A stretch of 64,000 nucleotides of DNA, from sequence record OP870143.1; one strand, 5' to 3'. This stretch comes from Escherichia phage vB_Eco_F22. Every line of letters begins with the position of its first letter. The first letter of the stretch is position 1. The translations under genes were made by a program, and so were the position numbers. Positions 304 through 49,655 of this stretch are shown here, piece after piece. The notes beneath the pieces were generated by a model. The model ran no database searches. It saw only the letters and a program-made list of their open reading frames with translations, and had not been told where the DNA came from.

Positions 304-513
304 GTTACACGTTGCTCCGCAACCTATGGACATGTCGTCCTATCATCAACTATTGGAGCTATCATCATGACTACTACCGCTACTGTACGTATGACCGCAG
401 GAACTTTACTTGGTACTGTTAACTCTGCTGCTACTACTGTTGCAGATACATTTGGTACTGCTACTAAAGCAGTAGGTATGCTTAACTCATATGTATCTAC
501 TATGGCAGAGAAA
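304..513. repeat. Right arm of the 210-bp inverted repeat; contains a hairpin motif and the first 49 codons of ORF 367..690
   Basis: Exact reverse complement of 1..210. Confidence 0.85.
311..323 (+). promoter_or_regulatory. Hairpin motif GTTGC-TCC-GCAAC upstream of ORF 367..690; candidate virion-RNAP-type hairpin promoter
   Basis: 5-bp GC-rich stem with 3-nt TCC loop, followed by ctatGGAc; same family as motifs at 929, 1242 and 5106. Confidence 0.4.
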
Positions 514-928: not shown

Positions 929-941
929 GCTGTTCCACAGC
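929..941 (+). promoter_or_regulatory. Hairpin motif GCTGT-TCC-ACAGC upstream of ORF 976..1191
   Basis: 5-bp stem, TCC loop, followed by ttacGGATa; member of the repeated motif family. Confidence 0.4.
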
Positions 942-975
942 TTACGGATACATTTCAACCAATTAGGAGACATCC

Positions 976-1241: not shown

Positions 1242-1256
1242 GGCTGCTCCGCAGCC
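1242..1256 (+). promoter_or_regulatory. Hairpin motif GGCTGC-TCC-GCAGCC upstream of ORF 1269..1751
   Basis: 6-bp stem, TCC loop, followed by tttGGATgattt then ATG at 1269. Confidence 0.45.
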
Positions 1257-1268
1257 TTTGGATGATTT

Positions 1269-1751: not shown

Positions 1752-1760
1752 TCAACAACT

Positions 1761-1790: not shown

Positions 1791-1894
1791 ACTAGACGAT
1801 AAGCTATTTCTACTTTTTGAGTATCTTTAGACGAAGGGTACTGAAACAGTAACCAGATAGATATAGATTTATATTAGATGAAGGAGTAACCACT

Positions 1895-2191: not shown

Positions 2192-2195
2192 GACT

Positions 2196-2414: not shown

Positions 2415-2584
2415 TATTCACTAACATTGAGGATGCCATTGAAGAATGTATCTTCCGTAGATATCACACTGGAGTACAGAAGCGACACTATGGTGTTGTA
2501 CAGCTCAATGGTTATCAAATGGCTGTAAGAATTGTACGTAACAATAAACCTTTTAACTTTATGTGGAGTACTAAACATGCGTAA
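2411..2584 (+). CDS. Possible small protein (about 57 aa, GTG start overlapping the upstream stop)
   Basis: Read by eye; not in the ORF track; weak support. Confidence 0.2.
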   Translation: MIFTNIEDAIEECIFRRYHTGVQKRHYGVVQLNGYQMAVRIVRNNKPFNFMWSTKHA

Positions 2585-2706
2585 GTCATTAATCATGGGA
2601 ACCAAAGCTGACGTACAGAAGATGAAAGAGCGTCTGGCTGCTAAGCAACAGACATCTGAACCAGTACGTAAGATTGTTACCTTCAACCATCCGTGCATAA
2701 AATAGT
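2578..2706 (+). CDS. Possible small protein (about 42 aa)
   Basis: ATG with GGAG about 10 nt upstream; ends just before terminator hairpin at 2708. Confidence 0.25.
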
Positions 2707-2707
2707 A

Positions 2708-2745
2708 AGGAGTCCTCCAATAGGAGGCTCCTATTTTTTATTTTT
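2708..2745 (+). terminator. Intrinsic terminator
   Basis: Imperfect hairpin AAGGAGTCCTCC/AGGAGGCTCCT followed by T-rich run. Confidence 0.55.
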
Positions 2746-2782
2746 GAATAGTTAGTTATGTATTTAAATAGGAGAAAGAGCC

Positions 2783-3097
2783 TTGAATGAAATAGTATGT
2801 ATACTTCCTCACTTAGCTAAAGTAGCTGACAGGAATATACGGGTACATTTACCCTTCCCATTAAGTAATCCATTCACTCGTAATGAAAGAACCACAGTAG
2901 AAGATATAGAGGTAGCTTATGAGGCTTATCTTCGTAATCGTCTTATTAGTGGTGACAAATTAATTACAGCAGAGATGGAAAGGATTGCATCCTTTGTCAC
3001 AGATAGTACTAAGAAACCTGTTGGTTTAATTGGTACTGAATCTGATGTTAACGTTATTCGTAAAATATTAATGGAGGCTTTAGGTGAACAACCTTAG
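2783..3097 (+). CDS. Hypothetical protein (104 aa; TTG start in track)
   Basis: ORF with AGGAG upstream. Confidence 0.45.
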   Translation: MNEIVCILPHLAKVADRNIRVHLPFPLSNPFTRNERTTVEDIEVAYEAYLRNRLISGDKLITAEMERIASFVTDSTKKPVGLIGTESDVNVIRKILMEALGEQP

Positions 3098-3317
3098 TGA
3101 TGTAATAGTAGGTAATGAAATATTCGTTAACCGAAAAGGTTATGCACGAATTAAGCTAAAGAGTACTAACAGAACTATTGTTCGTAAGGTGTACTCTAAA
3201 CCTTTTAGTAATTTCTCTATTGATGAGGTGCGTATTAATAACAAAATGTACCTCATAGATAGTAAAGTATCTGTATGCCATACAGACGGTAAAACCTCAC
3301 TTGAATATGCTTATTAA
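3084..3317 (+). CDS. Hypothetical protein (77 aa; GTG start)
   Basis: ORF overlapping the upstream gene end; same transcriptional orientation. Confidence 0.4.
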   Translation: MNNLSDVIVGNEIFVNRKGYARIKLKSTNRTIVRKVYSKPFSNFSIDEVRINNKMYLIDSKVSVCHTDGKTSLEYAY

Positions 3318-3329
3318 GGAATAAACAAA

Positions 3330-3551
3330 ATGTTGTTCAGCACTAATTATGGTATTTGCCCGATTTGCAATAAAGGAAGAGGAGTTGCTAATCATAAGAA
3401 GTGTAGTCGTATCCTACAGAAACAACGGAACCAGGAAGAATGGGATAAGTTGTTAAATAATCAGCATAAAGAAGAGAACCAACAGATGGCTGTTAAGGCA
3501 TCTACTCAACGTATTCGCCGTATTAACTATATACAGGGGTATCAGAAATGA
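3330..3551 (+). CDS. Hypothetical basic protein with CxxC motif (73 aa)
   Basis: ORF; CPICNKG near N-terminus; 4-nt overlap with the next gene. Confidence 0.45.
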   Translation: MLFSTNYGICPICNKGRGVANHKKCSRILQKQRNQEEWDKLLNNQHKEENQQMAVKASTQRIRRINYIQGYQK

Positions 3552-3904
3552 AACTAATTGTAGCTGGGGGACGTGACTTCACTGACACCAATCGTATGAT
3601 TGCTGAATTACAGAAGCTAGTAGAATCAGGTGAAATAACTGATTCACCTGAACTTGTATGTGGTATGGCTCGAGGAGCAGATATGCTTGCATATAGTCTC
3701 TGGGCTAATAACCGTATGCCTATCCACAACTTCCCAGCAAACTGGAATAAGCATGGAAAGTCTGCTGGTTATAAACGTAATCAGGAAATGGGTGAATTTG
3801 CAGATGCTGCTGTATGTTTCTGGGATGGTAATTCCAAAGGAACCAAGCACATGATTGATATCATGAATAGGCTTAATAAACCTGTATACATTGTGAGGTA
3901 CTGA
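3548..3904 (+). CDS. SLOG/DprA-like Rossmann-fold protein (DUF2493-like, 118 aa)
   Basis: N-terminal VAGGRDF and central GMARGAD motifs resemble the DprA/SLOG GxARGxD signature. Confidence 0.5.
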   Translation: MKLIVAGGRDFTDTNRMIAELQKLVESGEITDSPELVCGMARGADMLAYSLWANNRMPIHNFPANWNKHGKSAGYKRNQEMGEFADAAVCFWDGNSKGTKHMIDIMNRLNKPVYIVRY

Positions 3905-5105: not shown

Positions 5106-5120
5106 AGCTGCTCCGCAGCT
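5106..5120 (+). promoter_or_regulatory. Hairpin motif AGCTGC-TCC-GCAGCT upstream of ORF 5134..5364
   Basis: 6-bp stem, TCC loop, followed by tgaGGATgtaatc then ATG at 5134; near-identical core to the 1242 motif. Confidence 0.45.
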
Positions 5121-5133
5121 TGAGGATGTAATC

Positions 5134-5364
5134 ATGGCAGTATCCATTCAGGAAATCATTGTTAAAAGGCACAAGAGAAAATGGGAAAGCTATTACAAGC
5201 TAAAAGAGGTAATTAATGCTGCTTACCTTAGTGAAGAAGGTTATGCCTGGGTTGAACTAAATAGTGTATGGCCTTGGAGACATAACATCTATACAGACAG
5301 TTTAATCATATTCTACAGCTATGCGAATGAGCATAGTGGTAGGCGTCTAATTGCAAGAATGTAA
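5134..5364 (+). CDS. Hypothetical protein (76 aa)
   Basis: ORF directly downstream of hairpin motif at 5106. Confidence 0.5.
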   Translation: MAVSIQEIIVKRHKRKWESYYKLKEVINAAYLSEEGYAWVELNSVWPWRHNIYTDSLIIFYSYANEHSGRRLIARM

Positions 5365-6643: not shown

Positions 6644-7861
6644 ATGCAACTGTTAACTGCCCGTGAATACCTGAAAGTAGATGTCGCTAACAACTATGGC
6701 TTAGATAAAAAGACATGGGATGAACGTATTAGCTGGTTCGATGAGAACGAAGCTAATCTGCTCAATCTGGTAGATGAAGCTGAAGAATCTGCACTGTTCT
6801 ATGCTGGTGTAAACGCATGGAAAGATATGAAAGCTGGTAAGCCTATTGGTTATGCCGTAGCTCTGGATGCTACATCATCTGGCTTACAGTTACTGGCTTG
6901 CCTGACTGGTGACCGTTCTGCTGCTGAACTGTGTAACGTAGTTAACTACATGGGCAAGAATGGTAAGCCATTACGTCGTGATGCTTATACAGTTATCTAT
7001 CATAAGATGCTGGACATCCTTGGTGAAGCATCTCGTATTAAACGTAGTGACACCAAGCAGGCAGTTATGACTGCATTCTATGGTTCAGAAGCTAAACCTA
7101 AAGAAGTATTCGGTGAAGGTATCCGTCTCAAGACTTTTGAGAATGTAATGGAAACTGTTGCTAGTGGACCTTGGGCATTGAACAAGTTCTTACTGCAATG
7201 TGGTAACCCAGACGCTAACCGTTATGTATGGGTATTGCCTGACAACTTCCATGCTGTCATTAAAGTTATGGTTCCTGAAGTACAGACTGTTAACTTCTTA
7301 GGTAAGCCATTCGACATCACTCGTATGGTCCAAGGTACTGAAGAGAAGACCCGTATGCTCTCTGCTAACATCACCCACTCTATTGATGGGATGGTAGTAC
7401 GTGAGATGCTGCGTCGTTGTAACTTCAACATGAACCAGGTGAACTATATTAAGTCCCTCTGTGAGGGAACCAGTGAATACATGGTTGGCTCTGATGATAA
7501 CTATGAAATGGTTAACACACTGTGGTCTAACTATGAGAAGTCGGGATTCCTGTCTACCCGTATCTTTGATTATCTGGACTCTGAAACAATTGCATTGGTT
7601 GATACAGATGTAATCATGGCTATGCTCAATACCATGCCTAAGAAACCATTCCCTGTAATGACCGTACACGACTGCTTCCGTTGTCATCCTAACTACGGTA
7701 ATGACCTGCGTCGTCAGTACAATCAGATTCTGTCTGACATTGCTAAGAGTGACCTACTGGGCTTCATCCTGTCTCAGGTACTGGGACAAGAGTTCTCTGC
7801 TGGTAAGCTGGATGACAGCCTTTGGCAGGACATCCTTGAAACAGATTATGCATTAAGTTAA
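6644..7861 (+). CDS. Phage RNA polymerase II catalytic subunit (T7-like single-subunit RNAP palm; N4 gp16-like)
   Basis: ALDATSSGLQ (motif A), RSDTKQAVMTAFYGSEAKPKEVFG (motif B, close to T7 RSVTKRSVMTLAYGSKEFG), TVHDCF (motif C); terminator at 7869. Confidence 0.8.
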   Translation: MQLLTAREYLKVDVANNYGLDKKTWDERISWFDENEANLLNLVDEAEESALFYAGVNAWKDMKAGKPIGYAVALDATSSGLQLLACLTGDRSAAELCNVVNYMGKNGKPLRRDAYTVIYHKMLDILGEASRIKRSDTKQAVMTAFYGSEAKPKEVFGEGIRLKTFENVMETVASGPWALNKFLLQCGNPDANRYVWVLPDNFHAVIKVMVPEVQTVNFLGKPFDITRMVQGTEEKTRMLSANITHSIDGMVVREMLRRCNFNMNQVNYIKSLCEGTSEYMVGSDDNYEMVNTLWSNYEKSGFLSTRIFDYLDSETIALVDTDVIMAMLNTMPKKPFPVMTVHDCFRCHPNYGNDLRRQYNQILSDIAKSDLLGFILSQVLGQEFSAGKLDDSLWQDILETDYALS

Positions 7862-34461: not shown

Positions 34462-34535
34462 GTCCACTTAGCTTAGACTGGGAAAGCAACCGACTAATAA
34501 TCGGAAGGTCACTGGTTCAAATCCAGTAGTGGACA
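34462..34535 (+). tRNA. tRNA gene (74 nt); anticodon loop CTAATAA, anticodon tentatively AAT; CCA not encoded
   Basis: Manual cloverleaf: acceptor GTCCACT/AGTGGAC (7 bp), D-stem GCTT/AAGC with GG in loop, 4-bp anticodon stem CCGA/TCGG, T-arm ACTGG-TTCAAAT-CCAGT. Confidence 0.5.
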
Positions 34536-34769
34536 CCTATTCAGCAGTAACATAGTCCTGATTGCATAGCACTCTAAAGACAACACTGGTAAGACAGTCC
34601 AGTGGCTGCTAATGTATTGTTATTCCCCTCGACGGGAATTTCGCTAGTGAAGGTAACACTTAAAAATCCAAAGCTACGTCTTACTACTATCGGGCTATCA
34701 ACCCACGGTCGCTTAACCCTATAGCGGTAGTAGTTTGACGGCCTGCCTCGTTGACTGCGTTAAAGTCAC

Positions 34770-36267: not shown

Positions 36268-36272
36268 AATAG

Positions 36273-36300
36273 AAGCCCCTCATTAGAGGGGCTTTTTTAT
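36273..36300. terminator. Bidirectional terminator at the convergence of rightward and leftward transcription
   Basis: Hairpin GAAGCCCCTC-ATTA-GAGGGGCTT flanked by A-run upstream and TTTTTTATTTT downstream, between + ORF end 36267 and - ORF end 36302. Confidence 0.7.
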
Positions 36301-36301: not shown

Positions 36302-39300
36302 TTAGTTTACCAGGTTCATCCAAGGGTTCAGGTTGTGAGCACGTAGACCTTGCCCAAAGCCCCATGAGTAATCCAGCCCACCCTTAGCAGCAATGCTAAA
36401 GATGTTGTCCTGAATAGGCAGACCAACATTACCAAACATGGTAGGAGTTGGAGCCAGCATTGCCATTGCTGCATGCACCGGGTTATTACGAATCATGGAC
36501 ACTGCAACCTTAGCTGAACGAATCTTAAAGTTGTAGAACCACATCAAACCAACACTTTCCATATACCCACGGAAGCGACCTGGTAAACGGTCATAGTTAA
36601 CAAACTCTTCAGTTACACGTCCCAGTGCTTCTTCACGAGTCTTACCTTTACGCTGAGTCAATTCATCATAGATGATTGCTTTAGCGATAAAGTCAGAGTA
36701 CTCAACTGTCTTTTGGATACCCTGGAACAGAGCAGTATCCTTGGTGATAAGTGCATAACGTCCAGCAGTACGTACAGACTTAGGTAACTTATCTGCCAGC
36801 TTTTCCATATATTCGTGAAGTTTGCCTTCAGTAATCAGAATGTCATCACGACCGATACCAGCATCTGCAATTGAAGAGAACTCACCAGCTTCCAACAGAG
36901 GCCAGATGCTCATACGCTTATGGCTATCAGTAATGGACTGAATCTCAGCCTTAAGTTTACGAATCTGGTTCGGGTTAGTAGCTGCACGTAATTCTGCTTC
37001 TGCATCTACCTGACGCAGACGAGATTTCAGGTACTGGTTAATCTCAGCAGTTTTCTGTGGAATGCTTTTAGCAATGTTCTTAACCGGTACACCACGGGCA
37101 ACCATCTGGTAAAGGTTAGCCAAGAAGTTAACAGCAGGTACGACTACTGACTTAACTACAATCAGAGTCTTGGCTTCTTTAACTAAGTTTTGAACCAGGT
37201 TCTCACCACCCATTGTGTACTTATAAGCACGGTTGCCAAATACACCCAGCATAGCTTTCTTGAAGGTATCCAATGTTTCCGGGGACCAACGAGAATTACC
37301 AGACCAGGCATCACCTACAGAAGCTGCACGATAACCAAGTGCATCATTCAGCATGTCACGACGCACCCACAGTTCACCCTCACCAAACAGACTTTCTGCT
37401 TTCTGACGTGTTTCACTGTTCATTAGCTTAAGAGCATCAGCAGTTACTGGGTCCAGTTTAGAACCAAGAAGGTTAACGTACTGGGATTTATTAGAGGCAG
37501 ACATCTTAATGTCGTTCTCATACATGCTATGCAGGTTCTCAATCAACATATTGTTGAAACGCTGAGCCTTAGCTTCTTCCACCTGACGACCACGCCATAC
37601 ACCAATTGCACGGGCAAGGTGATTCTCGCCTTCAATGTGCTTCAGCATGTTAGGGTCAATGGATTGCTCATAGGCAACCACATTACCTTTGTCATCATAT
37701 ACAGGCAGAAGTGGTTCATTACCACGTTCACCACGAGCCAGTGCTTTAGTGATACGGTCTACGGAAGGCTTGTCAGTAATACGACCAGCTACCATCGAAC
37801 CCATCGTAAAGCCCGTACCGATGTCTACACCACCAGCAGTATTACGAACGTTTTGTAGGATACCCTGTGAGAAAGGAGCCTGTGCCTGTACCGGTGCGAA
37901 GTAGTAGCTGCGTGCTGGACCACGGTTAGCAGAGCTACCTTGATAAGTACCCAGACGTACATAAGATTTCTCAATCAAATCTCCAAACTGGCTATCTTCA
38001 GCAACAATCAGATTAACACCCTGTTTAGTCTCACTAGGGATATGCCCTTTGTACTGGTTCAAGGTTGCACGCATATCAGACTTGGCTTTAGCCATTTCAT
38101 CTTTACGCTGACCAACCAGGTAAGAAGTAGCAAAGTCCATTCCATCAACTTCTGTCTGAGCCAGAGAAGATAACATCTCACGGTCGGACTTGTTCATTGC
38201 TTCCAGTGCATACAGGGTAATCAGTTTATCCAGTTGAGCTACATCTACAGTAGAACGAGCAGCCTGACGTTCACCAAGCATACGAGAGATTGCAGTAGCA
38301 TTACGCAGCAGGTTATTACCGACTGTACCGTTAATCATGAACTGAGCCAGTTGCTTAGATTTACGACTAATAAGAGGCCAGTTACGACCAGCTTGTTTCT
38401 GCAAATCTGCTTCCAGCTTATTCACTTCACGGTCAACAATCTTCTGGTCAGATAGTAGGTCACGGATTTCAGCCAGAGACATAGTGTCACGCAGAACAGC
38501 TAAGTCAGTTTTACCCATGCCAGTGTGCATTGCTTTCCACTCATCGTTAGTCAGCTTACGGCTGAACTTAGATGCGATAGTGGTAGGCAGGTGTTCACGG
38601 AATTGCTGACGGTCTGCTTGTACCTGTGCACGAACTGCTTTAATCAAATCGTATACAGAAGCATTACTCTTAGTACGACCAGTTAAGTCATTAACCAGGT
38701 CATGGAAGGGTTGCCATACCTTACCCTGGTTCATTGCAGCCATAACACCTTCAGCTACAATTGCACCATTCTTCTCAGTAGCAATAGCAGCCACCAATTG
38801 TGCAGCATGGGCAGCACCTTTAACCAATGGATTCTTAGTATTAGCTGCAACTTCGCGAGCACTTTCTAAAGCACGAGTAGACAGTGCATCAATAGAATCC
38901 ACCAGATACTGGTTAGCACGATCAATAGCATTACCACTAGGAGTAGCAACGGAATCATAGAATGACTGTGCATTGAGGCTAGTCTGCATGATTGTCTGAG
39001 CCAGTGCATCCATACCTTCCTGTACGTTGGTAGCTTTAGTGTCACCTGCTACACGGGCATTCAAGCTAGACATTGCAGCAGTACCAATGTTAGTCAGCAT
39101 TGCATCAATGGTATTACCGGATTTCTTATCTGCTTTCATAACAGGAATGTTAGCCAGTACGTTACGTACCTCTTCACTTACCATTGCCAGACCAACAAAG
39201 GTAGGCAGTAAGGAAGAACGACCCTGTGCATCAAACTCGATATTGTTAGCACCCATGATGGTATCGAACTTCTGCTGTGCATAGTAACGGTCAGCAGGGT

Positions 39301-42300
39301 TGGTACTATCCGGGTCAGCCATGAATGCTTCAACGGTCAGATTCTTAGTAACGTGTGCATAGTATTCCTGTGCACGAGATAGAGCAGCCGGACTAATAGC
39401 AGCCTCAGTAGCCAAAGCAGCAACGATATTAGTGAACAGGCGTTGTTCCTGCATATTCATAGTGAAACCATGAGCCTGAACATCACGGGTTACTTTAGTA
39501 GCATTCACTACTGCATCAGAGAACTTACCTTTACGAATTACTTGTTGCACTGGTTCTGAACCAATGTAGTTAGTAATCAGCTTATCAAAGGTCTGCCCCA
39601 ATTCTTCCAGACGGGTATTGTCGCCATACGCCTTGTTATGGAACAAGGTAGTGTCCTTGGATACAGCAGCCGTAGGAGCCTGCCCACGCATAACTACGGA
39701 AGAGTTAAACAGTAAGCCAGAGAACATATCATCTGCATTAGCAGGAGCTTTCTTACGACCGAATACCAGACGCTTGATTGCTTCATACACAGACTGAACC
39801 ATAGTCTTCAGTGCAGTAGTCTTCTTCTGCTTACTAATTAGTTCACGGTTGGTTAAGCCCCAAGCCATGTATTCGTTCAGTGCAGCAGCTTTAGCCATTG
39901 CCGGTTCAATGAAGCCATTAGACAAGTGACCGTTAATGGTATTGAGTGCATCAGCATATGCTTCACGTACTGCCGGGGTTTCATCCTTAACATCCAGAGT
40001 ACGGAACTGGTTCATCAGGTCTTCAATATTCTGAACTGCTTCATTAGGAGTACCCTCATAATGAGCCAGTACAGATTCAAAAGTAGAAGCATGTACCAAT
40101 TCATGAACCAGAGTCTCTAAGGAAGGGGTAACTAAGTAGATGGTCTTATCATCAAAGTTAGTCCAGCCATATGCATTACCAGCTTCGGCAGCTTCAATAT
40201 CTTCCGGTGCTGGGCGAGTAATGTTCTTCTCAATAGCATAAGCATCCAGCTGAGCAGGAGTACCGTAAACAACCTTGTAGTCTTTAGCAGCAAGGGATTT
40301 CTGTACTTCTTTCAATACCGCTTGCTGTTCAGGAGACATCTCTTTAGCCAGCTTAGTGATAGCAGTATTAGACAGCAGACGTACACCAGACTTCAGTACA
40401 CGACCAACCTGTTCCATTGCTGGTACTTCTTTAACAGGTGTTTCTTCAGCAGGTACTTCTTTCACTGGTTCTGCTTTAGCAGCACGTACTGCATCACGGC
40501 GCTTATTTAATTCGGCATCAAACAGTTCGTTTAGCTTAGCTACTTGCTGGTCTACAGTCAGACCTTCCAGAGAGATTTTACCGTTGTTCACATAAGGAGC
40601 ACCTACAGCAGCCATCTGGTCAACAGTGGTCTGTACCTGGTTCATTACTTTGTGGCGAATATCTACACCTAAAGCAATGTTACGCAGATTACGTTCAATG
40701 AGGTTAACACCGGATTTCTCAATCATATCAATCTTATACTGCCTGTCTCCCTCAACACGACTGATATGGGAAAGCTGTTCAAAATCTAAAGCGGAACGAG
40801 CAATGTCATCAATTGTCTTATCTGACAACTTATTAAAGTCTACGTTCTTCATGAACTTAGAGAAGGAGTCATACACGTTCTTAATAGGATTGCCCTGCCA
40901 AGAAGTATAAACAGCCTCATTAGCTTTACGACTTGCATCAGTGATGTCATTGATACCAATGTTCATACCATCAAAGATTTTCAGGGTATTCTTCGGAGCA
41001 CCTTTCATAGTAGAAAGGGTCTGCATCATCATGCCATCACCAGTACCAATGGTCATAAATGGAATACCTGCAACACCTGCTTGTGAAGGAGCATAGATGC
41101 TCATTGGCACACGCATACGGTCGTCTAAGTTGGTAGCCAGTACTTGGTTAGCAACATCAGTATTCTCACTGCCAGCAATGTAAAAAGTCTGTGAACCAGT
41201 CTCAATCATTGGAGCCAGTGGAGACAGGGATTTCTGAATTTCATTCAGCTCTTCCTGTGTTAAGAAATCGCCCTTCTTCCAGGTTGGGTCTTTTTCTTTT
41301 TCTGCCAGTTTAGCCTGTACTGCTTGTTGGAACATATCCTGCAATACTAAAGACTGAATTTGAGTAGCCTTCTGCAAGTTCTCAGTGGAGTGCATCAGAC
41401 CTTCACCAACGGTGAACCGGATACTTTGTCTCATTGGTTCAACGAAGAAGTGCAACATGTTCTCTTGTAGGTTCTTAAGAGCATCACCAGATACAGTAAA
41501 CTCCTGGGGATCTAACTCACCAGTCAGAGCACCATCTACTTCCTTAATAAATAACTTACCTTTACGCTTAGCTGGAATCTTACCAGTCAGTGCTTCCATA
41601 GAAGTAAGGAAGGTATCCAGCATAGCCTGAGCATCTGCCTCAGACGCAGCCTCCTTACCAAACAATGCCATAGCTGGGGAAATGCTAGGGTCAGTAGCAC
41701 GTGCTTGTAGAACGTCACTGAGGCGTTCGTAGATGGCGTCAGTAATTGCACTAACCATCTTGCCAGCAATACCACGAGCACCAGAACCATAGATGGTAAT
41801 GGTCAGGGGGTTTTTAGCGATGCCACGTTTCAGGTCCAGAGTACCGTCTTCATTCAGGTTAAAGTCTTTAATGAACAGGTCCATTAGCTTCTGGAGATGA
41901 TCCATCTGGCTCATAACAGGAACGTTGTTACGGTAAGCACTACGTAATTCATTTAGATAGAATTGCAAACTATTGGTAGATGCTTCATACAGGTCAACAT
42001 TATCGTCGATAGAGCAATGTTCGTTCATCGTTTTACCAGCACGACCAAAGAACAAACCACCCTTGGCAGTATTCTTAATCCAATTTGGAGTGAACTTACC
42101 TCCAGTCATTAATACCATTGCGTTGATTGGGCCGTTGGTTACACCATCGGCTTCAACGTACAGAGGAGTATTAAAATTAGCACGGTTATCACTGTTCAGG
42201 TAACGGGCATATTCCATCAGAGCCATGAGAGCCACGAAGGATTTGTTATCACCCAAAGAGGTCTTCAGGATATCTACTGCATCTGTCGGTAAGTGCCCAG

Positions 42301-45300
42301 ACTTATCAAACTCAACCATCATATCAACAGCAGGTTTCAATTTGCCTTCCAGAGCTTTAGTCAACTCTTCAGACATAGCTTCACGGGACATTTTATGTAC
42401 CTTGATGCCTAATGCCTGAGCCAGTCCTAACTGGAAGTCAGAGAACGCTTGGCTATTTTCATTACTCAGGTCAATAGTAGAGAAGGTTGGCAGAATTGCT
42501 TCACGAACCAGCTTACTGGATTGTGGGTTGTTCTTACCAAGCATCTGCATACGACCTACTCGGGTCATGTTATAGCCATAGTGAATGGGGGTATCCAAAC
42601 CATTCTCTTGTTCTTTTAGATGATTAATTAAACCGAACAGAGAATCATATGCCATAGATACTGATAAGTTCTTACCTTCCAGTGATTTAGCATTATTTTT
42701 ATTCAGCAAATCAGGATTAAGAGTACCAGCACCCATTAGTTCCAGAATGCTGTCTCGACCCAATGCTTCATAGAAGTTAACCATCGGCATGTGTACACGG
42801 AACTCAGTAGCCTGTTCAGCTTTCAGTGCAGCTTTCTGTTCGGGGGTATTCTTAACAGCAGGATTACGTAACTGAGTTTGGGCCACGGAAGGAATGTCGT
42901 CACCAAAGTACATTTTCTCTTCCGGATTTACCAACACAGCTTCTTCAATTGCTGTAGGGAAATTATTAATAGGGTCTTTATCAGCCAACTTATTAATAGT
43001 GTACAGACCAATAGTCTTATTAGAGTCCGGGTCAATCTCAGACACATCCAGCATAGTCTCTGTAACTGCACCCATCTCAATGAGGGAAGACAGAATCTCT
43101 GTAGCCATTGCCACTGGAATGCCTTTTGTATAACCCAGTGGTGCATTAGGGTTACGATTCAAACCCCAATAAGATTCAATCTTCTGAGCCAGTGAGCTAG
43201 TAGCTTCGACCAGGGTCTGGGCATTCTCAAATTCAGCCAGAATACTTTCTGGTAACAAGGATGCTTCTACTCCAGTAATGGCAGCTACGTCTTTTATGTC
43301 TTTAATGGCAGCATTCTGTGCAGCAGTCAGTCGCCATTGCAGACCAGCAAGCACGGCAGTCTCTAACAACTGGTCATTGAACTTAAAGGTATCACCATCT
43401 TTTTCAACGATATTCAGCAGTTTGCCACCTACCCAACGGTTAGCTTCAGTACCTTCTGCAAAACGTTTACCAACGTTCTTATTAGCAAGGAACTTAGCCA
43501 GTCGTTCAGACAGAGTAGTCTTCAGTGTTTCCCCAAAGTCCATCAAATCTTGGTAACGTTCTAACACATCACCCGTGAGAGCGTTATTTTCTTTTTGAGT
43601 GAATGCTTCAAAGCGAGCAGCAGAAGACAGTGCTTGCTTAATATCAGCTAAAGGAGATTCAGAACCAATGGTACGGGACTTGGGTTCTTCTGGCAGGGTA
43701 AATGCTTTCAGGAACTGGTTCGGTGTCTTTTCATTGTTATAGACAGGGAACACTGTTTCCATCTCAGAAAGAGGTTTGCCACCTACTGTATAATCTGCTT
43801 TTAGCTGAGCCAGCGATACTTCATCTTTCTCCACGTTGTTAGTGTTACGGCCAGAGGTATCTACACCAACCAGAATCTGTGCATTATTGGCTTCAACGAA
43901 AGATTGAACAGTATTGAATTGTTCAGCGGTCAGCTTTTGATTATCAAACAGTTGTAGGGACACAAACGGTTGTTCACTGCCTTTATAGAAAGTAGAGCGA
44001 ATAGAACCAGTATCCAAAGACATATCACGATAGCCATCATGCCCAAATACGTCAGACAGGCTGATATGGTCGCCATTAGAACCAACCACAGTACCATCAG
44101 CAAACAACCACGGACTCTCTCTACGGTCACCACTCTTATTAAGAGTTTCCTGTGAAATGGTATTTTCTTTCACATAAGCATCTCTTTCAGATTCAGTAGG
44201 TTGCTCAATGGTATCCTCATTAGTGAGGGTAGCATCTACTGTTTCAGGCTTAGTAGTAGAAACTTCTTCTGTTTTTGGGCTAGTCTCCTTAGTAGGAGCA
44301 GTCTTATTTTCTACCACTGGTTTAGCTTTAGGCTGTACAGTAGTAGTGTCCTCTTGCACTGGTGCAGGAGTTTCATCAACCTGATTCACTGGTTCATTAG
44401 TCTGTTGAGACTGAGTGGCATCAAGACCACCTTGACGGAACTCTTTAACTACCTGGGCAGCAGGCTTGTTCAGACGTGAATCCAACGAGGTAACTTTCAC
44501 ATGAGAAACATTAAGCTCCGGGTAAGCCGTAGCAAGTGCATTAGCAATATCAGCTACGGTTTTGGCCTCCAGTCCTACTTGCTGTGCAAACTTAACAGAC
44601 TTGGTATCGTAAGGATTAACACCGAGGCCAGTACGACTACGTACCCATTCACGGGAAGGCGAGAGAGCCTGATAATGAACAGACTTATTCTTATCCGCAT
44701 TCCCCGAAATCAGATGCTCATTCAACGCTCCGACCTTATTCTGCATGTGCTGGGCGAACTTCATAAAGTCGCTCAGATAAGCGGAGGCCAAATCGAAGTT
44801 ACCAGAGTTATACGCAGAACGAATGCGTTTCGCATGTTGCAACGCAGAGTACTGTCCTTCATTAGAACGAGACTCGTCGGTTTTAATCTGTTTACTAACA
44901 ATGTCTTGAGGACGTAAGCCTAGTTCTTCTGCTTTAGCGTCGAACTCTCGTGCACCCTGTAACAAGGCAGCAGCAGATTGCAGGGCAGCACGTTGACGAT
45001 TCCCCAGTGTAATCTTACCTTCGCTTGCGTGCTTCAGAACCATGTTCACTGAATCTGCATCCAGTACTTCTGGAGATACATCAGCAGCCATAGCAATGTT
45101 GTTTGCTTGGGCTTGATTAGCTTCTTCAGTAGCTTTCAGCTTACCTGCTTCAGCCTGTTCCTGAATCATAGAATGGATGGCACGGAATGCACGAAGTACT
45201 TTAGGGGTATTCTGTACGTTAGCCATCAGACCAGAGAACTGGTCTACGATTGCAGCAGCAGGGGAACCCTGTTCCAGATTAGCCAGAGCACCCGGGTCAC

Positions 45301-47149
45301 GGTTAATGAAGCTATCCATGGACATGATGTTGTCATACATCTGGATTGCAGCTTCCATTTGAACGTTAGGGTCTTCGGCAGTATTAACCAGGTCAGCCAT
45401 CTTCTGAATAGCTTCTACACGGTTAGTGGAACCAGAAACAGCTTCACGGATTACTGGGTTAGCTTGTTCCAACTCTACCGGGTCGAACTTCATTGCCTGA
45501 GTTAAGTCAGCAGCATACTGGGTAGCAGCAGCTTTCTCTTCCGGAGAAATATCCATTGCATCTACTGCTTCCTGTACAGTTGCTTGTGCTTGTTCTGCCT
45601 GAGCAGCAGCTTCCTGTGCAGCAGCATTAACCGTAGCATCAGCTACAGGGGATGCTTGTTCATTACGCTTGGCAACTTCTTCACCACGTTGAACCAGAAT
45701 GTTAGTAAGAGGAGATGCAGCTTTTGCTAGTGTTTTACCAACCAGAGAAGCACCAGCCAGGGTAGTACGAAGAGTAGGGCCAGCAGCAGCACCGGCAGCT
45801 TTAACAGTTGCACCAGGGACTTGAGCAACTCCAGCACTACCGAAGCCATAAAGTGCACCAAGACCTGCTTGCTCACCAACCCCTTTGAGGGTGTCACGGG
45901 ATGCATCAACGTTTTCTTTGATTGCAGTATTCTGTGCGAACTGACCAAAGCCGGATTGAATACCTTCCTCTACAGTTTCACGCAGCATATTAGAACCAGC
46001 ACCTGCCAGTGAACCTACCTTAAGTGGGTTAAGTTCAAAGCGAGATACCAGTGGGCCGGTAGCAGCAGCAACTGGAGCAGTTAAGCCAGCAGCAATGATA
46101 CCTGTTTCAGATGCAGTCTGACGACGTGCTTCATCAGGAGATAAACCATCAGCAATATGCTGTTGGTAAACAGGAGACTTACTTGCCAGTTCTTGGTGGG
46201 ACATCTTCATGATTTCAGAAGCAGTCTGTTGGTATGCACCACCAGCTTCCATACCACCGATTGCAATAGCAGGTGCAGCAACACGACCAGCAGACAGTGC
46301 AACCTGTGCAGGACGTGAACCTAACCCAGCAGCTAAGGTAATACCCTTAACAGCTTTATCACCACCTACCATTACTTTACCGAGTGCAGATACACCACGA
46401 ATAAGTGGACCACCGGTAAAGAGGGAACCAACACCTTCACTCAGTCCGTCAGAGGCAGCCATACCATTATCAAGTGTATTAGCAACAGAATCGAAAGCAT
46501 CACGACCAATACGAGACAAGGAGGCAACCAAATCGTTCTCCCCATTTTTGATGTCTTGTTCATAAAGTTTCTGATTCTTTTGAGCAGAAATCTGGTTCTG
46601 ATTCTGAACAACCTTACGGGTAGCATTCAGTGCATCAGACTGTAGATTGTGTACGCCTTCATTCAACCAATCCATCCCGGAAGCAATGGTTGCCCCGGCA
46701 TTATCATTGACCAAACCTGTGCCAAGAGCAGCAATGCCCCCAAGGGTATTAGCAACACCAAGACCAACACCAGAAAGAGTATCGCCAAATGCTTCTGCGT
46801 TAGTACGTTGTTTAGATAAGTCCTGACGTACAACATCCGCAGCATTAGCTCGGCTATTAAGAATTTGTAGACCTTGCTCATTACCGTATTTATTAATGAT
46901 TTCTAATGGGGAGGCTTGAGTGAAATCTGCCTGAAGTGAACCTGGTTCGAATGCACCGATTCCAAGATTACCTACACGTCCGGTCTGGAGATTGTAAGCA
47001 TTCTCTGGGGTTAATTGGAAAGGGATTTGCCCTTGTGCAGCTTGCTTCTGAGAGGTTGCAGTAGAGACATCGACTCGCTTAGCATTAGTGATGCTGTCTG
47101 CGAAACCTGCCAGACGGTCAAATGTTGACATAGCATGTTTCCTGTTCAA
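36302..47149 (-). CDS. Giant virion RNA polymerase (N4 gp50-like vRNAP), 3615 aa
   Basis: Single uninterrupted 10.8-kb ORF; central T7-like palm motifs LYVEADGVTNGPINAM (A), KNPLTITIYGSGARG (B), KIFDGMNIG (C); first gene of the leftward block. Confidence 0.8.
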   Translation of the reverse strand: MNRKHAMSTFDRLAGFADSITNAKRVDVSTATSQKQAAQGQIPFQLTPENAYNLQTGRVGNLGIGAFEPGSLQADFTQASPLEIINKYGNEQGLQILNSRANAADVVRQDLSKQRTNAEAFGDTLSGVGLGVANTLGGIAALGTGLVNDNAGATIASGMDWLNEGVHNLQSDALNATRKVVQNQNQISAQKNQKLYEQDIKNGENDLVASLSRIGRDAFDSVANTLDNGMAASDGLSEGVGSLFTGGPLIRGVSALGKVMVGGDKAVKGITLAAGLGSRPAQVALSAGRVAAPAIAIGGMEAGGAYQQTASEIMKMSHQELASKSPVYQQHIADGLSPDEARRQTASETGIIAAGLTAPVAAATGPLVSRFELNPLKVGSLAGAGSNMLRETVEEGIQSGFGQFAQNTAIKENVDASRDTLKGVGEQAGLGALYGFGSAGVAQVPGATVKAAGAAAGPTLRTTLAGASLVGKTLAKAASPLTNILVQRGEEVAKRNEQASPVADATVNAAAQEAAAQAEQAQATVQEAVDAMDISPEEKAAATQYAADLTQAMKFDPVELEQANPVIREAVSGSTNRVEAIQKMADLVNTAEDPNVQMEAAIQMYDNIMSMDSFINRDPGALANLEQGSPAAAIVDQFSGLMANVQNTPKVLRAFRAIHSMIQEQAEAGKLKATEEANQAQANNIAMAADVSPEVLDADSVNMVLKHASEGKITLGNRQRAALQSAAALLQGAREFDAKAEELGLRPQDIVSKQIKTDESRSNEGQYSALQHAKRIRSAYNSGNFDLASAYLSDFMKFAQHMQNKVGALNEHLISGNADKNKSVHYQALSPSREWVRSRTGLGVNPYDTKSVKFAQQVGLEAKTVADIANALATAYPELNVSHVKVTSLDSRLNKPAAQVVKEFRQGGLDATQSQQTNEPVNQVDETPAPVQEDTTTVQPKAKPVVENKTAPTKETSPKTEEVSTTKPETVDATLTNEDTIEQPTESERDAYVKENTISQETLNKSGDRRESPWLFADGTVVGSNGDHISLSDVFGHDGYRDMSLDTGSIRSTFYKGSEQPFVSLQLFDNQKLTAEQFNTVQSFVEANNAQILVGVDTSGRNTNNVEKDEVSLAQLKADYTVGGKPLSEMETVFPVYNNEKTPNQFLKAFTLPEEPKSRTIGSESPLADIKQALSSAARFEAFTQKENNALTGDVLERYQDLMDFGETLKTTLSERLAKFLANKNVGKRFAEGTEANRWVGGKLLNIVEKDGDTFKFNDQLLETAVLAGLQWRLTAAQNAAIKDIKDVAAITGVEASLLPESILAEFENAQTLVEATSSLAQKIESYWGLNRNPNAPLGYTKGIPVAMATEILSSLIEMGAVTETMLDVSEIDPDSNKTIGLYTINKLADKDPINNFPTAIEEAVLVNPEEKMYFGDDIPSVAQTQLRNPAVKNTPEQKAALKAEQATEFRVHMPMVNFYEALGRDSILELMGAGTLNPDLLNKNNAKSLEGKNLSVSMAYDSLFGLINHLKEQENGLDTPIHYGYNMTRVGRMQMLGKNNPQSSKLVREAILPTFSTIDLSNENSQAFSDFQLGLAQALGIKVHKMSREAMSEELTKALEGKLKPAVDMMVEFDKSGHLPTDAVDILKTSLGDNKSFVALMALMEYARYLNSDNRANFNTPLYVEADGVTNGPINAMVLMTGGKFTPNWIKNTAKGGLFFGRAGKTMNEHCSIDDNVDLYEASTNSLQFYLNELRSAYRNNVPVMSQMDHLQKLMDLFIKDFNLNEDGTLDLKRGIAKNPLTITIYGSGARGIAGKMVSAITDAIYERLSDVLQARATDPSISPAMALFGKEAASEADAQAMLDTFLTSMEALTGKIPAKRKGKLFIKEVDGALTGELDPQEFTVSGDALKNLQENMLHFFVEPMRQSIRFTVGEGLMHSTENLQKATQIQSLVLQDMFQQAVQAKLAEKEKDPTWKKGDFLTQEELNEIQKSLSPLAPMIETGSQTFYIAGSENTDVANQVLATNLDDRMRVPMSIYAPSQAGVAGIPFMTIGTGDGMMMQTLSTMKGAPKNTLKIFDGMNIGINDITDASRKANEAVYTSWQGNPIKNVYDSFSKFMKNVDFNKLSDKTIDDIARSALDFEQLSHISRVEGDRQYKIDMIEKSGVNLIERNLRNIALGVDIRHKVMNQVQTTVDQMAAVGAPYVNNGKISLEGLTVDQQVAKLNELFDAELNKRRDAVRAAKAEPVKEVPAEETPVKEVPAMEQVGRVLKSGVRLLSNTAITKLAKEMSPEQQAVLKEVQKSLAAKDYKVVYGTPAQLDAYAIEKNITRPAPEDIEAAEAGNAYGWTNFDDKTIYLVTPSLETLVHELVHASTFESVLAHYEGTPNEAVQNIEDLMNQFRTLDVKDETPAVREAYADALNTINGHLSNGFIEPAMAKAAALNEYMAWGLTNRELISKQKKTTALKTMVQSVYEAIKRLVFGRKKAPANADDMFSGLLFNSSVVMRGQAPTAAVSKDTTLFHNKAYGDNTRLEELGQTFDKLITNYIGSEPVQQVIRKGKFSDAVVNATKVTRDVQAHGFTMNMQEQRLFTNIVAALATEAAISPAALSRAQEYYAHVTKNLTVEAFMADPDSTNPADRYYAQQKFDTIMGANNIEFDAQGRSSLLPTFVGLAMVSEEVRNVLANIPVMKADKKSGNTIDAMLTNIGTAAMSSLNARVAGDTKATNVQEGMDALAQTIMQTSLNAQSFYDSVATPSGNAIDRANQYLVDSIDALSTRALESAREVAANTKNPLVKGAAHAAQLVAAIATEKNGAIVAEGVMAAMNQGKVWQPFHDLVNDLTGRTKSNASVYDLIKAVRAQVQADRQQFREHLPTTIASKFSRKLTNDEWKAMHTGMGKTDLAVLRDTMSLAEIRDLLSDQKIVDREVNKLEADLQKQAGRNWPLISRKSKQLAQFMINGTVGNNLLRNATAISRMLGERQAARSTVDVAQLDKLITLYALEAMNKSDREMLSSLAQTEVDGMDFATSYLVGQRKDEMAKAKSDMRATLNQYKGHIPSETKQGVNLIVAEDSQFGDLIEKSYVRLGTYQGSSANRGPARSYYFAPVQAQAPFSQGILQNVRNTAGGVDIGTGFTMGSMVAGRITDKPSVDRITKALARGERGNEPLLPVYDDKGNVVAYEQSIDPNMLKHIEGENHLARAIGVWRGRQVEEAKAQRFNNMLIENLHSMYENDIKMSASNKSQYVNLLGSKLDPVTADALKLMNSETRQKAESLFGEGELWVRRDMLNDALGYRAASVGDAWSGNSRWSPETLDTFKKAMLGVFGNRAYKYTMGGENLVQNLVKEAKTLIVVKSVVVPAVNFLANLYQMVARGVPVKNIAKSIPQKTAEINQYLKSRLRQVDAEAELRAATNPNQIRKLKAEIQSITDSHKRMSIWPLLEAGEFSSIADAGIGRDDILITEGKLHEYMEKLADKLPKSVRTAGRYALITKDTALFQGIQKTVEYSDFIAKAIIYDELTQRKGKTREEALGRVTEEFVNYDRLPGRFRGYMESVGLMWFYNFKIRSAKVAVSMIRNNPVHAAMAMLAPTPTMFGNVGLPIQDNIFSIAAKGGLDYSWGFGQGLRAHNLNPWMNLVN

Positions 47150-47193: not shown

Positions 47194-47216
47194 AAGAAAA
47201 AAGCCCCGTAGGGCTT
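47194..47216 (-). terminator. Intrinsic terminator between the upstream virion gene and vRNAP
   Basis: Hairpin AAGCCCC-GTA-GGGCTT; read on the minus strand it is followed by TTTTTTCTT. Confidence 0.55.
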
Positions 47217-47225
47217 TTATTAGTA

Positions 47226-49178
47226 TTACCGATTTTGTCTTGGTTGCATATACTCGGGCAGTCCTTGTGCCTGACGTAAGTATCGTGCAGCACGCTCTTC
47301 ATCTTCCTTGGCTCGTGCCCTGTCCACACTAGCCTGTGACTGGAAACCTCTTGGAGCCAGGTTAGCTGGGTCAGCTTGAACTTGTGCCTGTGCAGCTTGG
47401 AGCATTGCAGCAGCTTTAGTAACAGCTTCCTGTCTTGCAGGTAACAATGCAGTAAGACCTGTTTGTCCGGTGTTAATCTTATTCTGGGTATTTGCCAGTG
47501 CAGCTACAGCAGCATCATATGCAGTCTGTGCTGCCTGAATATTCTGCATAGCTTGAGCACGACCCAGGTTACGAACACTACCTTCCAGTGGCTCTCCCCG
47601 TTTCACACCCTCAATTAACTGTTCTACCTGACGGTCATTAAGACGCATACCATTACCGGCTTCATTGGTAATGAGTGGGTTAATTGCATCAATAGCACGG
47701 CTAATATAACCCTCTGGTACACCGGTCTGTGCACGTTGCATAACAGCAGCAGCCATAGCTGGTGACATATTCCCACGTTGAGAAATATCATTCAGTCGGT
47801 TCAGTACCCAGTTACGGTCAGCACCTTTAAAATCACCCTCCAACAGACGGTTAGCAATCTCACCTACTGGGGTATTATCAGTGACAGTACCGAGGAAGTC
47901 TGTATTAAGACTACCGGTGTTATCCTGCATAGAACGAGTACCAATCATACCGGTAGCCAGAGTAGATACTGCCTGATTACCAACCATAGCTAGTGGGTCA
48001 GCCCCCACTTCTGCTTGGGCAATAACAGGTTTAATCTGTTCCCAAGTCATATCCTTATAAGCACCCGGAGTAGAGTTAGGCAGAGCAGCCCAGGTATCTT
48101 TAAGGTTGCCATTCTTACGGGCCTCGAAGATAGCCTTACCAATCTTATCCTGGTTCTCAGGAGAAAGAGGCTGGCTTTGCCAATCTGAACCAAGAACTTT
48201 GGGAGCGAAGTCTTGCAGAGTAGCTTGGTTAATCTGGAATGCACCAACAGGTGAAGCACCCTGGTTCGTCTTCATACCTTCTTGATGCTTAACTACATCA
48301 CCAATACTCATTTGAGTAATAGGAGTAGAAGTACCAGCAAACTGGTAAGTAACATCATAAGGGGAACCCTGACGTGTACCAGCAGTACCCGGAGCAGATG
48401 CAGCACCCACACCATTACCGTATACACCCGGGTAAGCACTAGCCAGTAATCCCTGCAAACGTGCCTGTGCAACCGGGGACAGGTTCTTACTATATGCTTC
48501 TGCCAACAGACGGGCATCATTAGGGTTCTCAGCACCACGGGTAATCTGTGACATTACACCCATAGCAGCCTGACTATCAGCATCATTACGCTGAGCAACA
48601 CCTAAATCAAAACGATTCTGAGCTTGATTAATAGCCTGACCACCCTGACCTTGAAGACTACTCAGCATGTCCAATTGCTGGTTAGCAGGGAGTGCAGACA
48701 ATGCATCACGGGTCTGACTTAATGCAGCATTAATACGGTTCTGGTCACCGGACTGATAAGCCTCAGACAGTAAACGAATAGCAGGGGAAGCATTATCTAA
48801 TGCAGAGTTAGTATCCTGCAAACGTCCAAAGATATAAGCATTGTAGTCATTGGTTCCCTGCTGACCTTGTTGAGTCAGTAATGTACCTGCTCTCTCGTCC
48901 AGATTCTGGAGAGTACGCTGGTTTATCAGTGAAGGGTCAACCCCCTGAAACAATGCACCAGATGCTAAAGCATTACGGTACTCATTCGGGTCTTGATACT
49001 GCATAGCATTCATCATGACGGCATTGCCAGCCTCCTGCTTGGCAGCGTTCTGGAAATTACCCAGTGCATCACTTAAGCCGGAGGTGGCGTTACCAATCAT
49101 GTTGCCAAATGTGCGAATGCTGTCACCAACTCCAGAGAAGTTAGGTGCATCAACATTTCTCCACGTTATCTGAGCCAT
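47226..49178 (-). CDS. Virion-associated protein (650 aa)
   Basis: Large ORF directly upstream of vRNAP on the same strand. Confidence 0.5.
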   Translation of the reverse strand: MAQITWRNVDAPNFSGVGDSIRTFGNMIGNATSGLSDALGNFQNAAKQEAGNAVMMNAMQYQDPNEYRNALASGALFQGVDPSLINQRTLQNLDERAGTLLTQQGQQGTNDYNAYIFGRLQDTNSALDNASPAIRLLSEAYQSGDQNRINAALSQTRDALSALPANQQLDMLSSLQGQGGQAINQAQNRFDLGVAQRNDADSQAAMGVMSQITRGAENPNDARLLAEAYSKNLSPVAQARLQGLLASAYPGVYGNGVGAASAPGTAGTRQGSPYDVTYQFAGTSTPITQMSIGDVVKHQEGMKTNQGASPVGAFQINQATLQDFAPKVLGSDWQSQPLSPENQDKIGKAIFEARKNGNLKDTWAALPNSTPGAYKDMTWEQIKPVIAQAEVGADPLAMVGNQAVSTLATGMIGTRSMQDNTGSLNTDFLGTVTDNTPVGEIANRLLEGDFKGADRNWVLNRLNDISQRGNMSPAMAAAVMQRAQTGVPEGYISRAIDAINPLITNEAGNGMRLNDRQVEQLIEGVKRGEPLEGSVRNLGRAQAMQNIQAAQTAYDAAVAALANTQNKINTGQTGLTALLPARQEAVTKAAAMLQAAQAQVQADPANLAPRGFQSQASVDRARAKEDEERAARYLRQAQGLPEYMQPRQNR

Positions 49179-49190: not shown

Positions 49191-49655
49191 TTAACGGGTT
49201 AGTTTATTAGCTGCAATGTAAGCATCAGCTGAAGACTGGTCACGGTTCTCTGCTGTAGCACGACTACGAGCACGGTCTTCCAGTGCAGTGTTATAAGACT
49301 TAATCTGGTTATTCAGGTTAGTGTTAGTAACACTCTTAGTAAAGTTCAACTGGTCTTTGGCTAACTTGTTAGCCTGGAAACCACTATAGATACCAGCTAA
49401 GGAACCAAGTGCACCAAGTCCTAGTTGGAAGGTGGGTACGTTCATACCCAACTGATTAGCTGAACCAGATAAGAAGGAGGTAGGGGAAGCCACTCCTGTA
49501 CCTGTATTCATACCAATAGCTGCACCCGGATTATAGTTCATAGCTGGAGTATTAAAGTTTTGATTGTTATTAGACATCCAAGACATAGCAGCTGGCTGTG
49601 GGGTTTGGTTGCCTGTTAAAAATGACAAATCCATGGGGATTCTCCTGTTAAACAA
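49191..49655 (-). CDS. Hypothetical virion protein (154 aa)
   Basis: ORF in the late structural block, 8-nt overlap with the upstream gene. Confidence 0.5.
   Translation of the reverse strand: MFNRRIPMDLSFLTGNQTPQPAAMSWMSNNNQNFNTPAMNYNPGAAIGMNTGTGVASPTSFLSGSANQLGMNVPTFQLGLGALGSLAGIYSGFQANKLAKDQLNFTKSVTNTNLNNQIKSYNTALEDRARSRATAENRDQSSADAYIAANKLTR

Follow-up and report, generated by a model that had tools for sequence, protein, structure and literature searches.

Escherichia phage vB_Eco_F22 (sequence record OP870143.1) carries, within the 64,000-nucleotide stretch of DNA that was analysed here (the window), a 10.8-kb open reading frame (ORF), and the locus raises the question of what so large a gene encodes, how it is transcribed, and in what respects its product differs from known relatives. 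From sequence comparison we put at about 97% the probability that this is an N4-type virion RNA polymerase (vRNAP) gene, a full-length orthologue of N4 gp50 from a G7C-like Gamaleyavirus, whose product would be expressed late from an ejection-protein operon, packaged in the virion and injected. As a gene it is not new: dozens of near-identical genomes have it annotated, and structures of its N4 orthologue are available. Packaging, injection and rifampicin-resistant early transcription are established for N4 vRNAP (PMC4496689, PMC13434306).

An orthologue of N4 gp50

An earlier note on this DNA had placed an ORF of 3615 amino acids (aa) on the minus strand at 36302-47149, recognised T7-like motifs A, B and C in its central region, taken the gene as an anchor for classifying the genome as N4-like, and suggested comparison with N4 gp50 and the mini-vRNAP structures. 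The ORF listing of the window gives exactly these coordinates and this length, and the remaining points are borne out by the comparisons that were made. In a phmmer search of all PDB sequences, full-length N4 gp50 (11gp, 9pnq and 9pnr) was matched with an E-value of 0 and 4999 bits, the alignment falling in two stretches (aa 1-996 and 1136-3608), and the N4 mini-vRNAP structures 2po4, 3c2p and 3q0a were matched with approximately 1657 bits. The Pfam domains N4_RNAP_helical, vRNAP_dom_2, vRNAP_dom and vRNAP_plug were all detected above their gathering thresholds, with E-values from 5e-100 to 5e-25, and PHROG 2206, 'virion RNA polymerase', scored 4113 bits across aa 25-3608. A stop-free run of 3615 codons has a chance probability of approximately 1e-93 at the stop-codon frequency of the window (0.057), which rules out a fortuitous ORF.

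The closest relatives are phages of the genus Gamaleyavirus. By megablast, nucleotide identity over the gene is 96.6% to E20, 95.1% to Bas96 and 92.8% to G7C, and in most records the match is to an annotated vRNAP; at the left end of the window, identity to E20 is 99.7%. The encoded protein is 98.9% identical to its E20 counterpart (WAQ79258), 95.9% to that of PhAPEC7 (AHV82680), 94.4% to G7C gp50 (AEL79661) and 66.6% to N4 over 3469 aligned residues. Membership of Gamaleyavirus is defined by at least 70% genome-wide nucleotide identity and by three RNA polymerase (RNAP) genes; the comparison here covers parts of the genome, of which the window falls short by approximately 8 kb, and homologues of gp2 and gp15 are present in it. 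Classification as an N4-like phage is consistent with both the whole-length match to gp50 and the megablast matches to the genus. The ratio of nonsynonymous to synonymous substitution rates (omega) is 0.09-0.13 over the N-terminal domain (NTD), the polymerase domain and the C-terminal domain (CTD).

Annotation of this gene varies among records. In Shigella phage pSb-1 (KF620435, 63879-70981) the vRNAP is entered as two 'hypothetical protein' coding sequences (CDSs), gp102 and gp103, broken near the linker, which may be due to a frameshift or to an error in sequencing, unless the gene is truly in two parts. The vRNAP also goes under the names 'DNA polymerase', 'translation initiation factor 2' or 'gram positive anchor domain protein' in several further records.

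The first possible start of the ORF is the TTG at 47149, which is probably not the start used. The sequence AGGAAA precedes an in-frame ATG six codons further in (47131), and translation from that ATG begins MSTFDRLAGF, which is the annotated vRNAP N-terminus in E20, G7C and PhAPEC7; the N4 counterpart is MSVFDRLAGF. Given this ATG and the N-terminus annotated for the orthologues, the true product is most likely of 3609 aa, encoded by 36302..47131. Domain boundaries were carried over from N4 by alignment (PMC13434306, PMC13492108), and the resulting map, in the numbering of the 3609-aa product, is as follows.

36302..47131, minus strand: vRNAP (N4 gp50 orthologue) CDS, 3609 aa plus a TAA stop; the maximal ORF reaches TTG 47149
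44429..47131, minus strand: NTD, aa 1-901, aligning to the N4 NTD
aa 902-1122, minus strand: linker 1, N4 boundaries via alignment
44186..44428, minus strand: low-complexity T/E/P/Q-rich part of linker 1, aa 902-982, fast-evolving (omega 0.38 against G7C)
43769..44185, minus strand: inserted module of linker 1, aa 983-1121, with a folded core at aa 995-1121 (43769-44149); SPWLxADG...GDH...TGAIR...QKLTxxQ
40472..43765, minus strand: polymerase domain (mini-vRNAP equivalent), aa 1123-2220; Pfam vRNAP_dom_2, vRNAP_plug, N4_RNAP_helical and vRNAP_dom
43433..43480, minus strand: recognition element for the -11/-10 bases of the hairpin loop, with K1218, R1223 and W1233 (mini-vRNAP K114, R119 and W129)
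42551..42565, minus strand: TxxGR motif (TRVGR, R1527), aa 1523-1527, by alignment
42128..42166, minus strand: motif A (PLYVEADGVTNGP; E1660 and catalytic D1662), aa 1656-1668, by alignment
41780..41827, minus strand: motif B (RGIAKNPLTITIYGSG; K1773 and Y1781), aa 1769-1784, by alignment
41105..41131, minus strand: specificity loop contacting the hairpin stem, with D2004 and R2007 (mini-vRNAP D901 and R904)
40955..40984, minus strand: motif C (LKIFDGMNIG; catalytic D2054), aa 2050-2059, by alignment
40412..40471, minus strand: linker 2, aa 2221-2240, N4 boundaries via alignment
36305..40411, minus strand: CTD, aa 2241-3609, autoinhibitory in N4 (PMC13434306, PMC13492108, PMC5512222)

The order NTD, linker 1, polymerase domain, linker 2 and CTD is that of N4 gp50 (2PO4, 3C2P, 3Q0A, 9PNQ/9PNR, 11GP), and a hydrophobic segment of the NTD (aa 224-274) aligns to the predicted membrane-spanning helices of the N4 protein (residues 224-278; PMC13434306). 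The two proteins are identical in TxxGR, in motifs A, B and C, in the plug, in the specificity loop, in the -11 recognition residues and in an HExxH motif. From TxxGR to motif C the catalytic motifs span aa 1523-2059, in the central region where the earlier note had placed A, B and C, and their catalytic residues are conserved. In mini-vRNAP numbering, which begins at gp50 residue 998 (PMC4496689), the eight residues whose roles are taken from that paper correspond as follows.

-10G contact: mini-vRNAP K114, window K1218 (PMC4496689)
-11G contact: mini-vRNAP R119, window R1223 (PMC4496689)
-11G stacking: mini-vRNAP W129, window W1233 (PMC4496689)
Initiating NTP: mini-vRNAP K437 and R440, window K1540 and R1543 (PMC4496689)
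Motif A: mini-vRNAP E557, window E1660 (PMC4496689)
Specificity loop: mini-vRNAP D901 and R904, window D2004 and R2007 (PMC4496689)

In the alignment, all 13 catalytic and promoter-contact residues that were checked are kept in N4, the window, E20, G7C and PhAPEC7, and the local sequence is identical. The other five have counterparts in R1527 (R424, TxxGR), D1662 (D559, motif A), K1773 and Y1781 (K670 and Y678, motif B) and D2054 (D951, motif C); N4 carries these residue types at these positions, and their roles we take to be those given by Kazmierczak et al. 2002.

Such conservation bears on whether the enzyme is active. A decayed or non-catalytic relative of vRNAP, retained as a structural or ejection 'polyvalent' protein that does not polymerise RNA, is conceivable in so far as giant polyvalent proteins of variable domain content are described (PMC5512222) and the window protein has an extra domain that N4 lacks. 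The conservation of catalytic R1527, D1662, K1773/Y1781 and D2054 and of every promoter-contact residue checked, the omega of 0.10 in the polymerase domain, and the presence in the window of hairpin promoters that match the enzyme make this extremely improbable.

The CTD also contains the zincin-like sequence HELVH (aa 2343-2347; 40091-40105, minus strand), which is conserved with N4 (aa 2228). Iyer et al. 2017 (PMC5512222) predict in this region a metallopeptidase-like domain that might process the giant protein; Pfam detected no metallopeptidase domain around HELVH at E<=0.1.

The late operon and its hairpins

Plus-strand genes extend to 36267; beyond them, as far as the right end of the window, lies the minus-strand block, whose leftmost position is 36302, and GC skew flips sign where the two meet. 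The vRNAP gene lies in the late block of virion-protein genes, beside homologues of gp51 and gp52, and the order of genes (portal ... major coat protein ... gp54, gp53, gp52, gp51, gp50) is exactly that of G7C and N4. The genes gp52-gp51-gp50 form a conserved ejection-protein operon (PMC13434306). The earlier note had called vRNAP the first gene of the leftward late block, and here it has to be corrected: the gene is leftmost on the map, yet it is the last and promoter-distal gene of the block, so that, as in N4, the gp52 and gp51 homologues lie upstream of it in the leftward operon, and a bidirectional terminator follows.

49191..49655, minus strand: gp52 homologue (N4 16.5-kDa ejection protein), upstream of the gp51 homologue
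47226..49178, minus strand: gp51 homologue (N4 66-kDa ejection protein), immediately upstream of the vRNAP gene in the same operon
47195..47222, minus strand: terminator-like hairpin and T-run (AAAAGCCC-TACG-GGGCTTTTTTCT), situated after the gp51 homologue and before the vRNAP start
36271..36296, both strands: bidirectional intrinsic-terminator hairpin, 6 nucleotides past the vRNAP stop, where the rightward and leftward blocks converge

The hairpin at 47195-47222 occupies a site whose equivalent in PhAPEC7 is annotated as a terminator; unlike in the window, the same scan found no terminator-like hairpin ahead of gp50 in N4. It may limit read-through and hold vRNAP at low copy. Near the end of the rightward block there is a tRNA-Ile gene (34462-34537, plus strand; anticodon AAT according to ARAGORN), and E20 annotates a tRNA-Ile at the equivalent place.

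N4-type promoters are expected in the window because the promoter-contact residues are identical to those of N4. A search for the literal N4 P2 hairpin GAAGCGGAGCTTC, allowing up to 3 mismatches, was uninformative (10 matches against 9.7 expected). A repeat family at 313, 931 and 1245 led to a general architecture, consisting of a 5-bp stem, a TCC loop, the complementary stem, 4 nucleotides and GGA, which occurs five times in the window against 0.03 expected from 300 Markov simulations. Four of the five copies are on the plus strand (at 311, 929, 1243 and 5107) and one is inverted, at 203. All four plus-strand hairpins are intergenic and lie upstream of homologues of the early genes gp1, gp1.2, gp2 and gp15.

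311..332, plus strand: candidate vRNAP promoter GTTGC-TCC-GCAAC-CTAT-GGA, upstream of the gp1 homologue
929..950, plus strand: candidate vRNAP promoter GCTGT-TCC-ACAGC-TTAC-GGA, upstream of the gp1.2 homologue
1243..1264, plus strand: candidate vRNAP promoter GCTGC-TCC-GCAGC-CTTT-GGA, upstream of the gp2 homologue
5107..5128, plus strand: fourth candidate vRNAP promoter GCTGC-TCC-GCAGC-TTGA-GGA, upstream of ORF 5134..5364 and the gp15 (RNAPII subunit) homologue

This architecture retains the N4 determinants of the template strand, namely -11G, -10G, -8G and +1C (the TCC loop being GGA on the template), and shares with N4 the 5-bp stem, the template GGA loop, the 4-nucleotide spacer and the GG start, the last of which agrees with the two initiating GTPs in N4 structures. 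The link that the earlier note drew between the polymerase and hairpins at the left end is thereby given definite positions. N4 is described as having three early promoters near its left end; the fourth candidate, upstream of the gp15 homologue, is a point of difference, and lies approximately 4 kb into the early region.

The extreme left end of the window needs separate comment. Positions 1-224 reproduce 290-513 as the reverse complement at 99%, and contain the first hairpin promoter again in inverted form; position 1 of G7C, which is the true left end of that genome, aligns to approximately position 224 of the window, and position 1 of E20 to 293. Positions 1-224 look like an assembly artefact, a fold-back or inverted duplication at a linear genome terminus, and not like biology.

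A different assignment of roles would have the protein as a T7-style RNAP that is made in the infected cell and left unpackaged, with the host polymerase serving early transcription. The GenBank notes for G7C leave some room for it, since they record confirmation in the virion for gp51 and gp54 and are silent on gp50. We consider it very unlikely: the gene belongs to the conserved ejection operon gp52-gp51-gp50 within the block of late structural genes; the NTD and CTD, which lie outside the polymerase domain, are conserved with N4 from end to end; middle transcription is served by separate homologues of the RNAPII subunits; and vRNAP has been found by matrix-assisted laser desorption/ionization in virions of KP8, a phage of the same subfamily (PMC6950046), and is present at 4 +/- 1 copies per N4 virion (PMC13434306, PMC13492108).

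No evidence contradicts the assignment of the gene to vRNAP. What weighs against the reading as a whole, with its late expression, packaging and injection, is the following. The hairpin at 47195-47222 would leave transcription of vRNAP to read-through or to an unrecognised promoter; in the gap that separates the gene from the gp51 homologue, no promoter of sigma70-like type was found. That this phage packages and injects the enzyme and uses the hairpins as promoters is attributed to it by orthology with N4. A direct match to T7 RNAP was sought by phmmer against the PDB, and only vRNAP entries were returned; the T7-like relationship accordingly comes by way of the N4 structures and the literature. 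With the T7 RNAP family the protein would share the right-hand fold and the TxxGR/DxxGR, A, B and C motifs, both of which have been established in N4 mini-vRNAP (PMC4496689). Unlike T7 RNAP, it has an N-terminal extension of approximately 1100 aa and a C-terminal one of approximately 1370 aa, a plug module and, by analogy with N4, hairpin single-stranded promoters and packaging in the virion.

A conserved module in linker 1

The window protein is 109 aa longer than N4 gp50, and nearly all of the difference comes from a folded module of approximately 125-139 aa in linker 1. In N4 this linker (residues 907-1006) is a disordered, low-complexity tether of approximately 100 aa (PMC13434306, PMC13492108). 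In the alignment, the insertion (aa 983-1121) is found in the window, E20 and G7C, and is lacking in N4 and PhAPEC7; the PhAPEC7 vRNAP (3450 aa) has neither this module nor a further one of approximately 144 aa that G7C bears in the same linker. By tblastn the module was found in 28 phage records, all of them Gamaleyavirus and all inside the vRNAP gene, at 92.6% identity or higher, and it is carried by about half of the Gamaleyavirus records found.

The module is under strong purifying selection and is not filler. Pairwise omega is 0.02-0.07 at synonymous divergence (dS) of up to 1.4, against 0.10 for the polymerase domain and 0.38 for the low-complexity stretch next to the module. When 1.84 billion representatives were searched exhaustively with HMMER, 21 relatives emerged. 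In an alignment of 19 sequences eight positions are invariant (S, P, L, G, D, H, R and Q), and they are kept down to 23% identity; the D, H, R and Q correspond to D1021, H1022, R1045 and Q1071 of the window protein. AlphaFold2 gave a poor model for the lone insert sequence (pLDDT 57), and an alignment-based model was used instead: this is a compact alpha/beta fold with a pLDDT of 92.4 and a pTM of 0.86, and it agrees with an independent BFVD model of the pSb-1 protein (TM 0.93).

Selfish or neutral DNA, such as an intein, the remnant of a mobile element or a functionless spacer, could also lengthen a linker. The distribution of the module is patchy within one genus, since 28 records have it and PhAPEC7, whose vRNAP is 95.9% identical overall, does not; G7C and Shigella phage B2 bear a different, additional module in the same linker; and polymerase genes of G7C-like phages are known to gain introns as well as homing elements (bioRxiv 10.1101/542787). 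We nevertheless regard such an origin as unlikely. The module is in frame and stop-free, has no Pfam match to Hint, intein or homing-endonuclease models, evolves under tighter constraint than the polymerase domain while the linker beside it does not, keeps its eight residues across distant homologues, has a compact and confidently predicted fold, and has a GC content equal to that of the gene (0.42 against 0.45). An intein was rejected on the lack of a Hint or intein match and also on its boundaries (…PTESE/RDAYV… and …GGKPL/SEMET…), which have neither Cys, Ser or Thr nucleophiles nor an HN motif. A PD-(D/E)xK nuclease was not adopted, fold similarity being marginal and the invariant residues including no conserved (D/E)xK.

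Where else the module occurs is informative about the kind of domain it may be. One relative (P0011) is a distant, metagenomic vRNAP, 22-24% identical, in which the module likewise precedes the polymerase; one BLASTP alignment spans the module into the polymerase domain. Others are large polyvalent proteins: P0003 (LPD39, SLT, SNF2-type helicase and methyltransferase (MTase)), P0004 (ddrB-ParB, LPD39 and MTase), P0013 (InPase) and P0015 (LPD38). The module is also present in a TrwC relaxase (P0020), and as a stand-alone 166-aa copy (P0010) on a phage-like metagenome contig (ERZ23491061, scaffold_4375, 7294-7794). Its recurrence within large proteins of many domains, from phages and from conjugative elements, is what is expected of a polyvalent-protein-associated domain. 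The gene for P0010 sits between PolB-exonuclease-like and ParB genes, near a prokaryotic ubiquitin/E2/JAB/ThiF cluster, a context that indicates no function.

Searches of reference collections returned little. No Pfam model matched any of 19 module members significantly (the best single-member E-value was 0.04), and the module regions of P0003 and P0004 lie outside any Pfam hit. No significant match was obtained to PHROG, NCBIfam or PADLOC, nor, with the module profile, to PDB sequences, and the module matches no solved structure. A word-index protein search gave no match with the insert and only P0010 with the domain alignment, the giant relatives from HMMER appearing in neither, and tblastn of the relaxase-borne copy against PLSDB plasmids gave no match. 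The polyvalent proteins of Iyer et al. 2017 (PMC5512222; e.g. P1 DarB-like MTase-helicase) are giant, multidomain and predicted, or in some cases shown, to be delivered with DNA; unlike the LPD families of such proteins, the module matches no Pfam LPD or other model.

That vRNAP accretes domains is already known as a theme, since Iyer et al. 2017 (PMC5512222) class N4-like vRNAPs as polyvalent proteins that gain accessory domains (ART, lysozyme, PBECR). This particular module was not found described in the literature searched, including the searched parts of that paper. We tentatively propose, at somewhat less than even odds, that it represents a previously undescribed 'delivered-with-DNA' domain family common to some vRNAPs, to DarB-like and other polyvalent proteins, and to a TrwC relaxase.

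The other module of this linker, in G7C gp50 (aa 968-1110; HQ259105, 44215-44565), is an unrelated insertion of approximately 144 aa, of which Shigella phage B2 has the only other copy (76% identity); PHROG gives no more than a marginal match (helix-turn-helix DNA-binding protein, E 0.013). Linker 1 seems to be a favoured site of domain gain.

Probable ejection and the wider meaning

In N4 the enzyme leaves the virion last, threading the gp51/gp52 channel like beads on a string, and its NTD is membrane-associated (PMC13434306, PMC13492108). On this model we infer the following course of events, from packaging and injection to the use of the promoters; whatever function the module has is likewise inferred. 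The vRNAP would be expressed late, from the last gene of the leftward gp52-gp51-gp50 operon, and few copies would enter the capsid. At infection it would leave via the tail and the gp51/gp52 channel, with the membrane-associating NTD, the flexible linkers, the polymerase domain and the autoinhibitory CTD as the 'beads on a string'. The T7-like polymerase domain would then recognise DNA hairpins with a 5-bp stem and a 3-nucleotide loop, extruded at the left end, and early transcripts would begin with GG. Linker 1 in this lineage carries one extra folded bead, the module of approximately 125 aa that is common to proteins delivered, or predicted to be delivered, with DNA; most likely it would act after ejection, as an accessory binding or enzymatic unit early in the infected cell.

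Identification of the vRNAP supports placing the phage among the G7C-like Schitoviridae, and full-length cryo-EM structures of the N4 orthologue have recently become available. What is added is a residue-level domain map, a corrected position in the operon, and a constrained, folded domain in linker 1, a region that in N4 is a disordered tether. The module is one more bead that needs to pass through a channel of approximately 30-35 Å, and so bears on the 'beads-on-a-string' model of ejection. For the role of the module itself, this phage or E20 on the one hand and PhAPEC7 on the other provide a natural presence/absence system. If the proposed domain family is real, linker 1 of vRNAP would be a hotspot where phages add accessory beads, with effector or binding roles, which enter the cell along with the polymerase, and the module could bring a new activity to early infection, for example anti-defence or host-factor binding.

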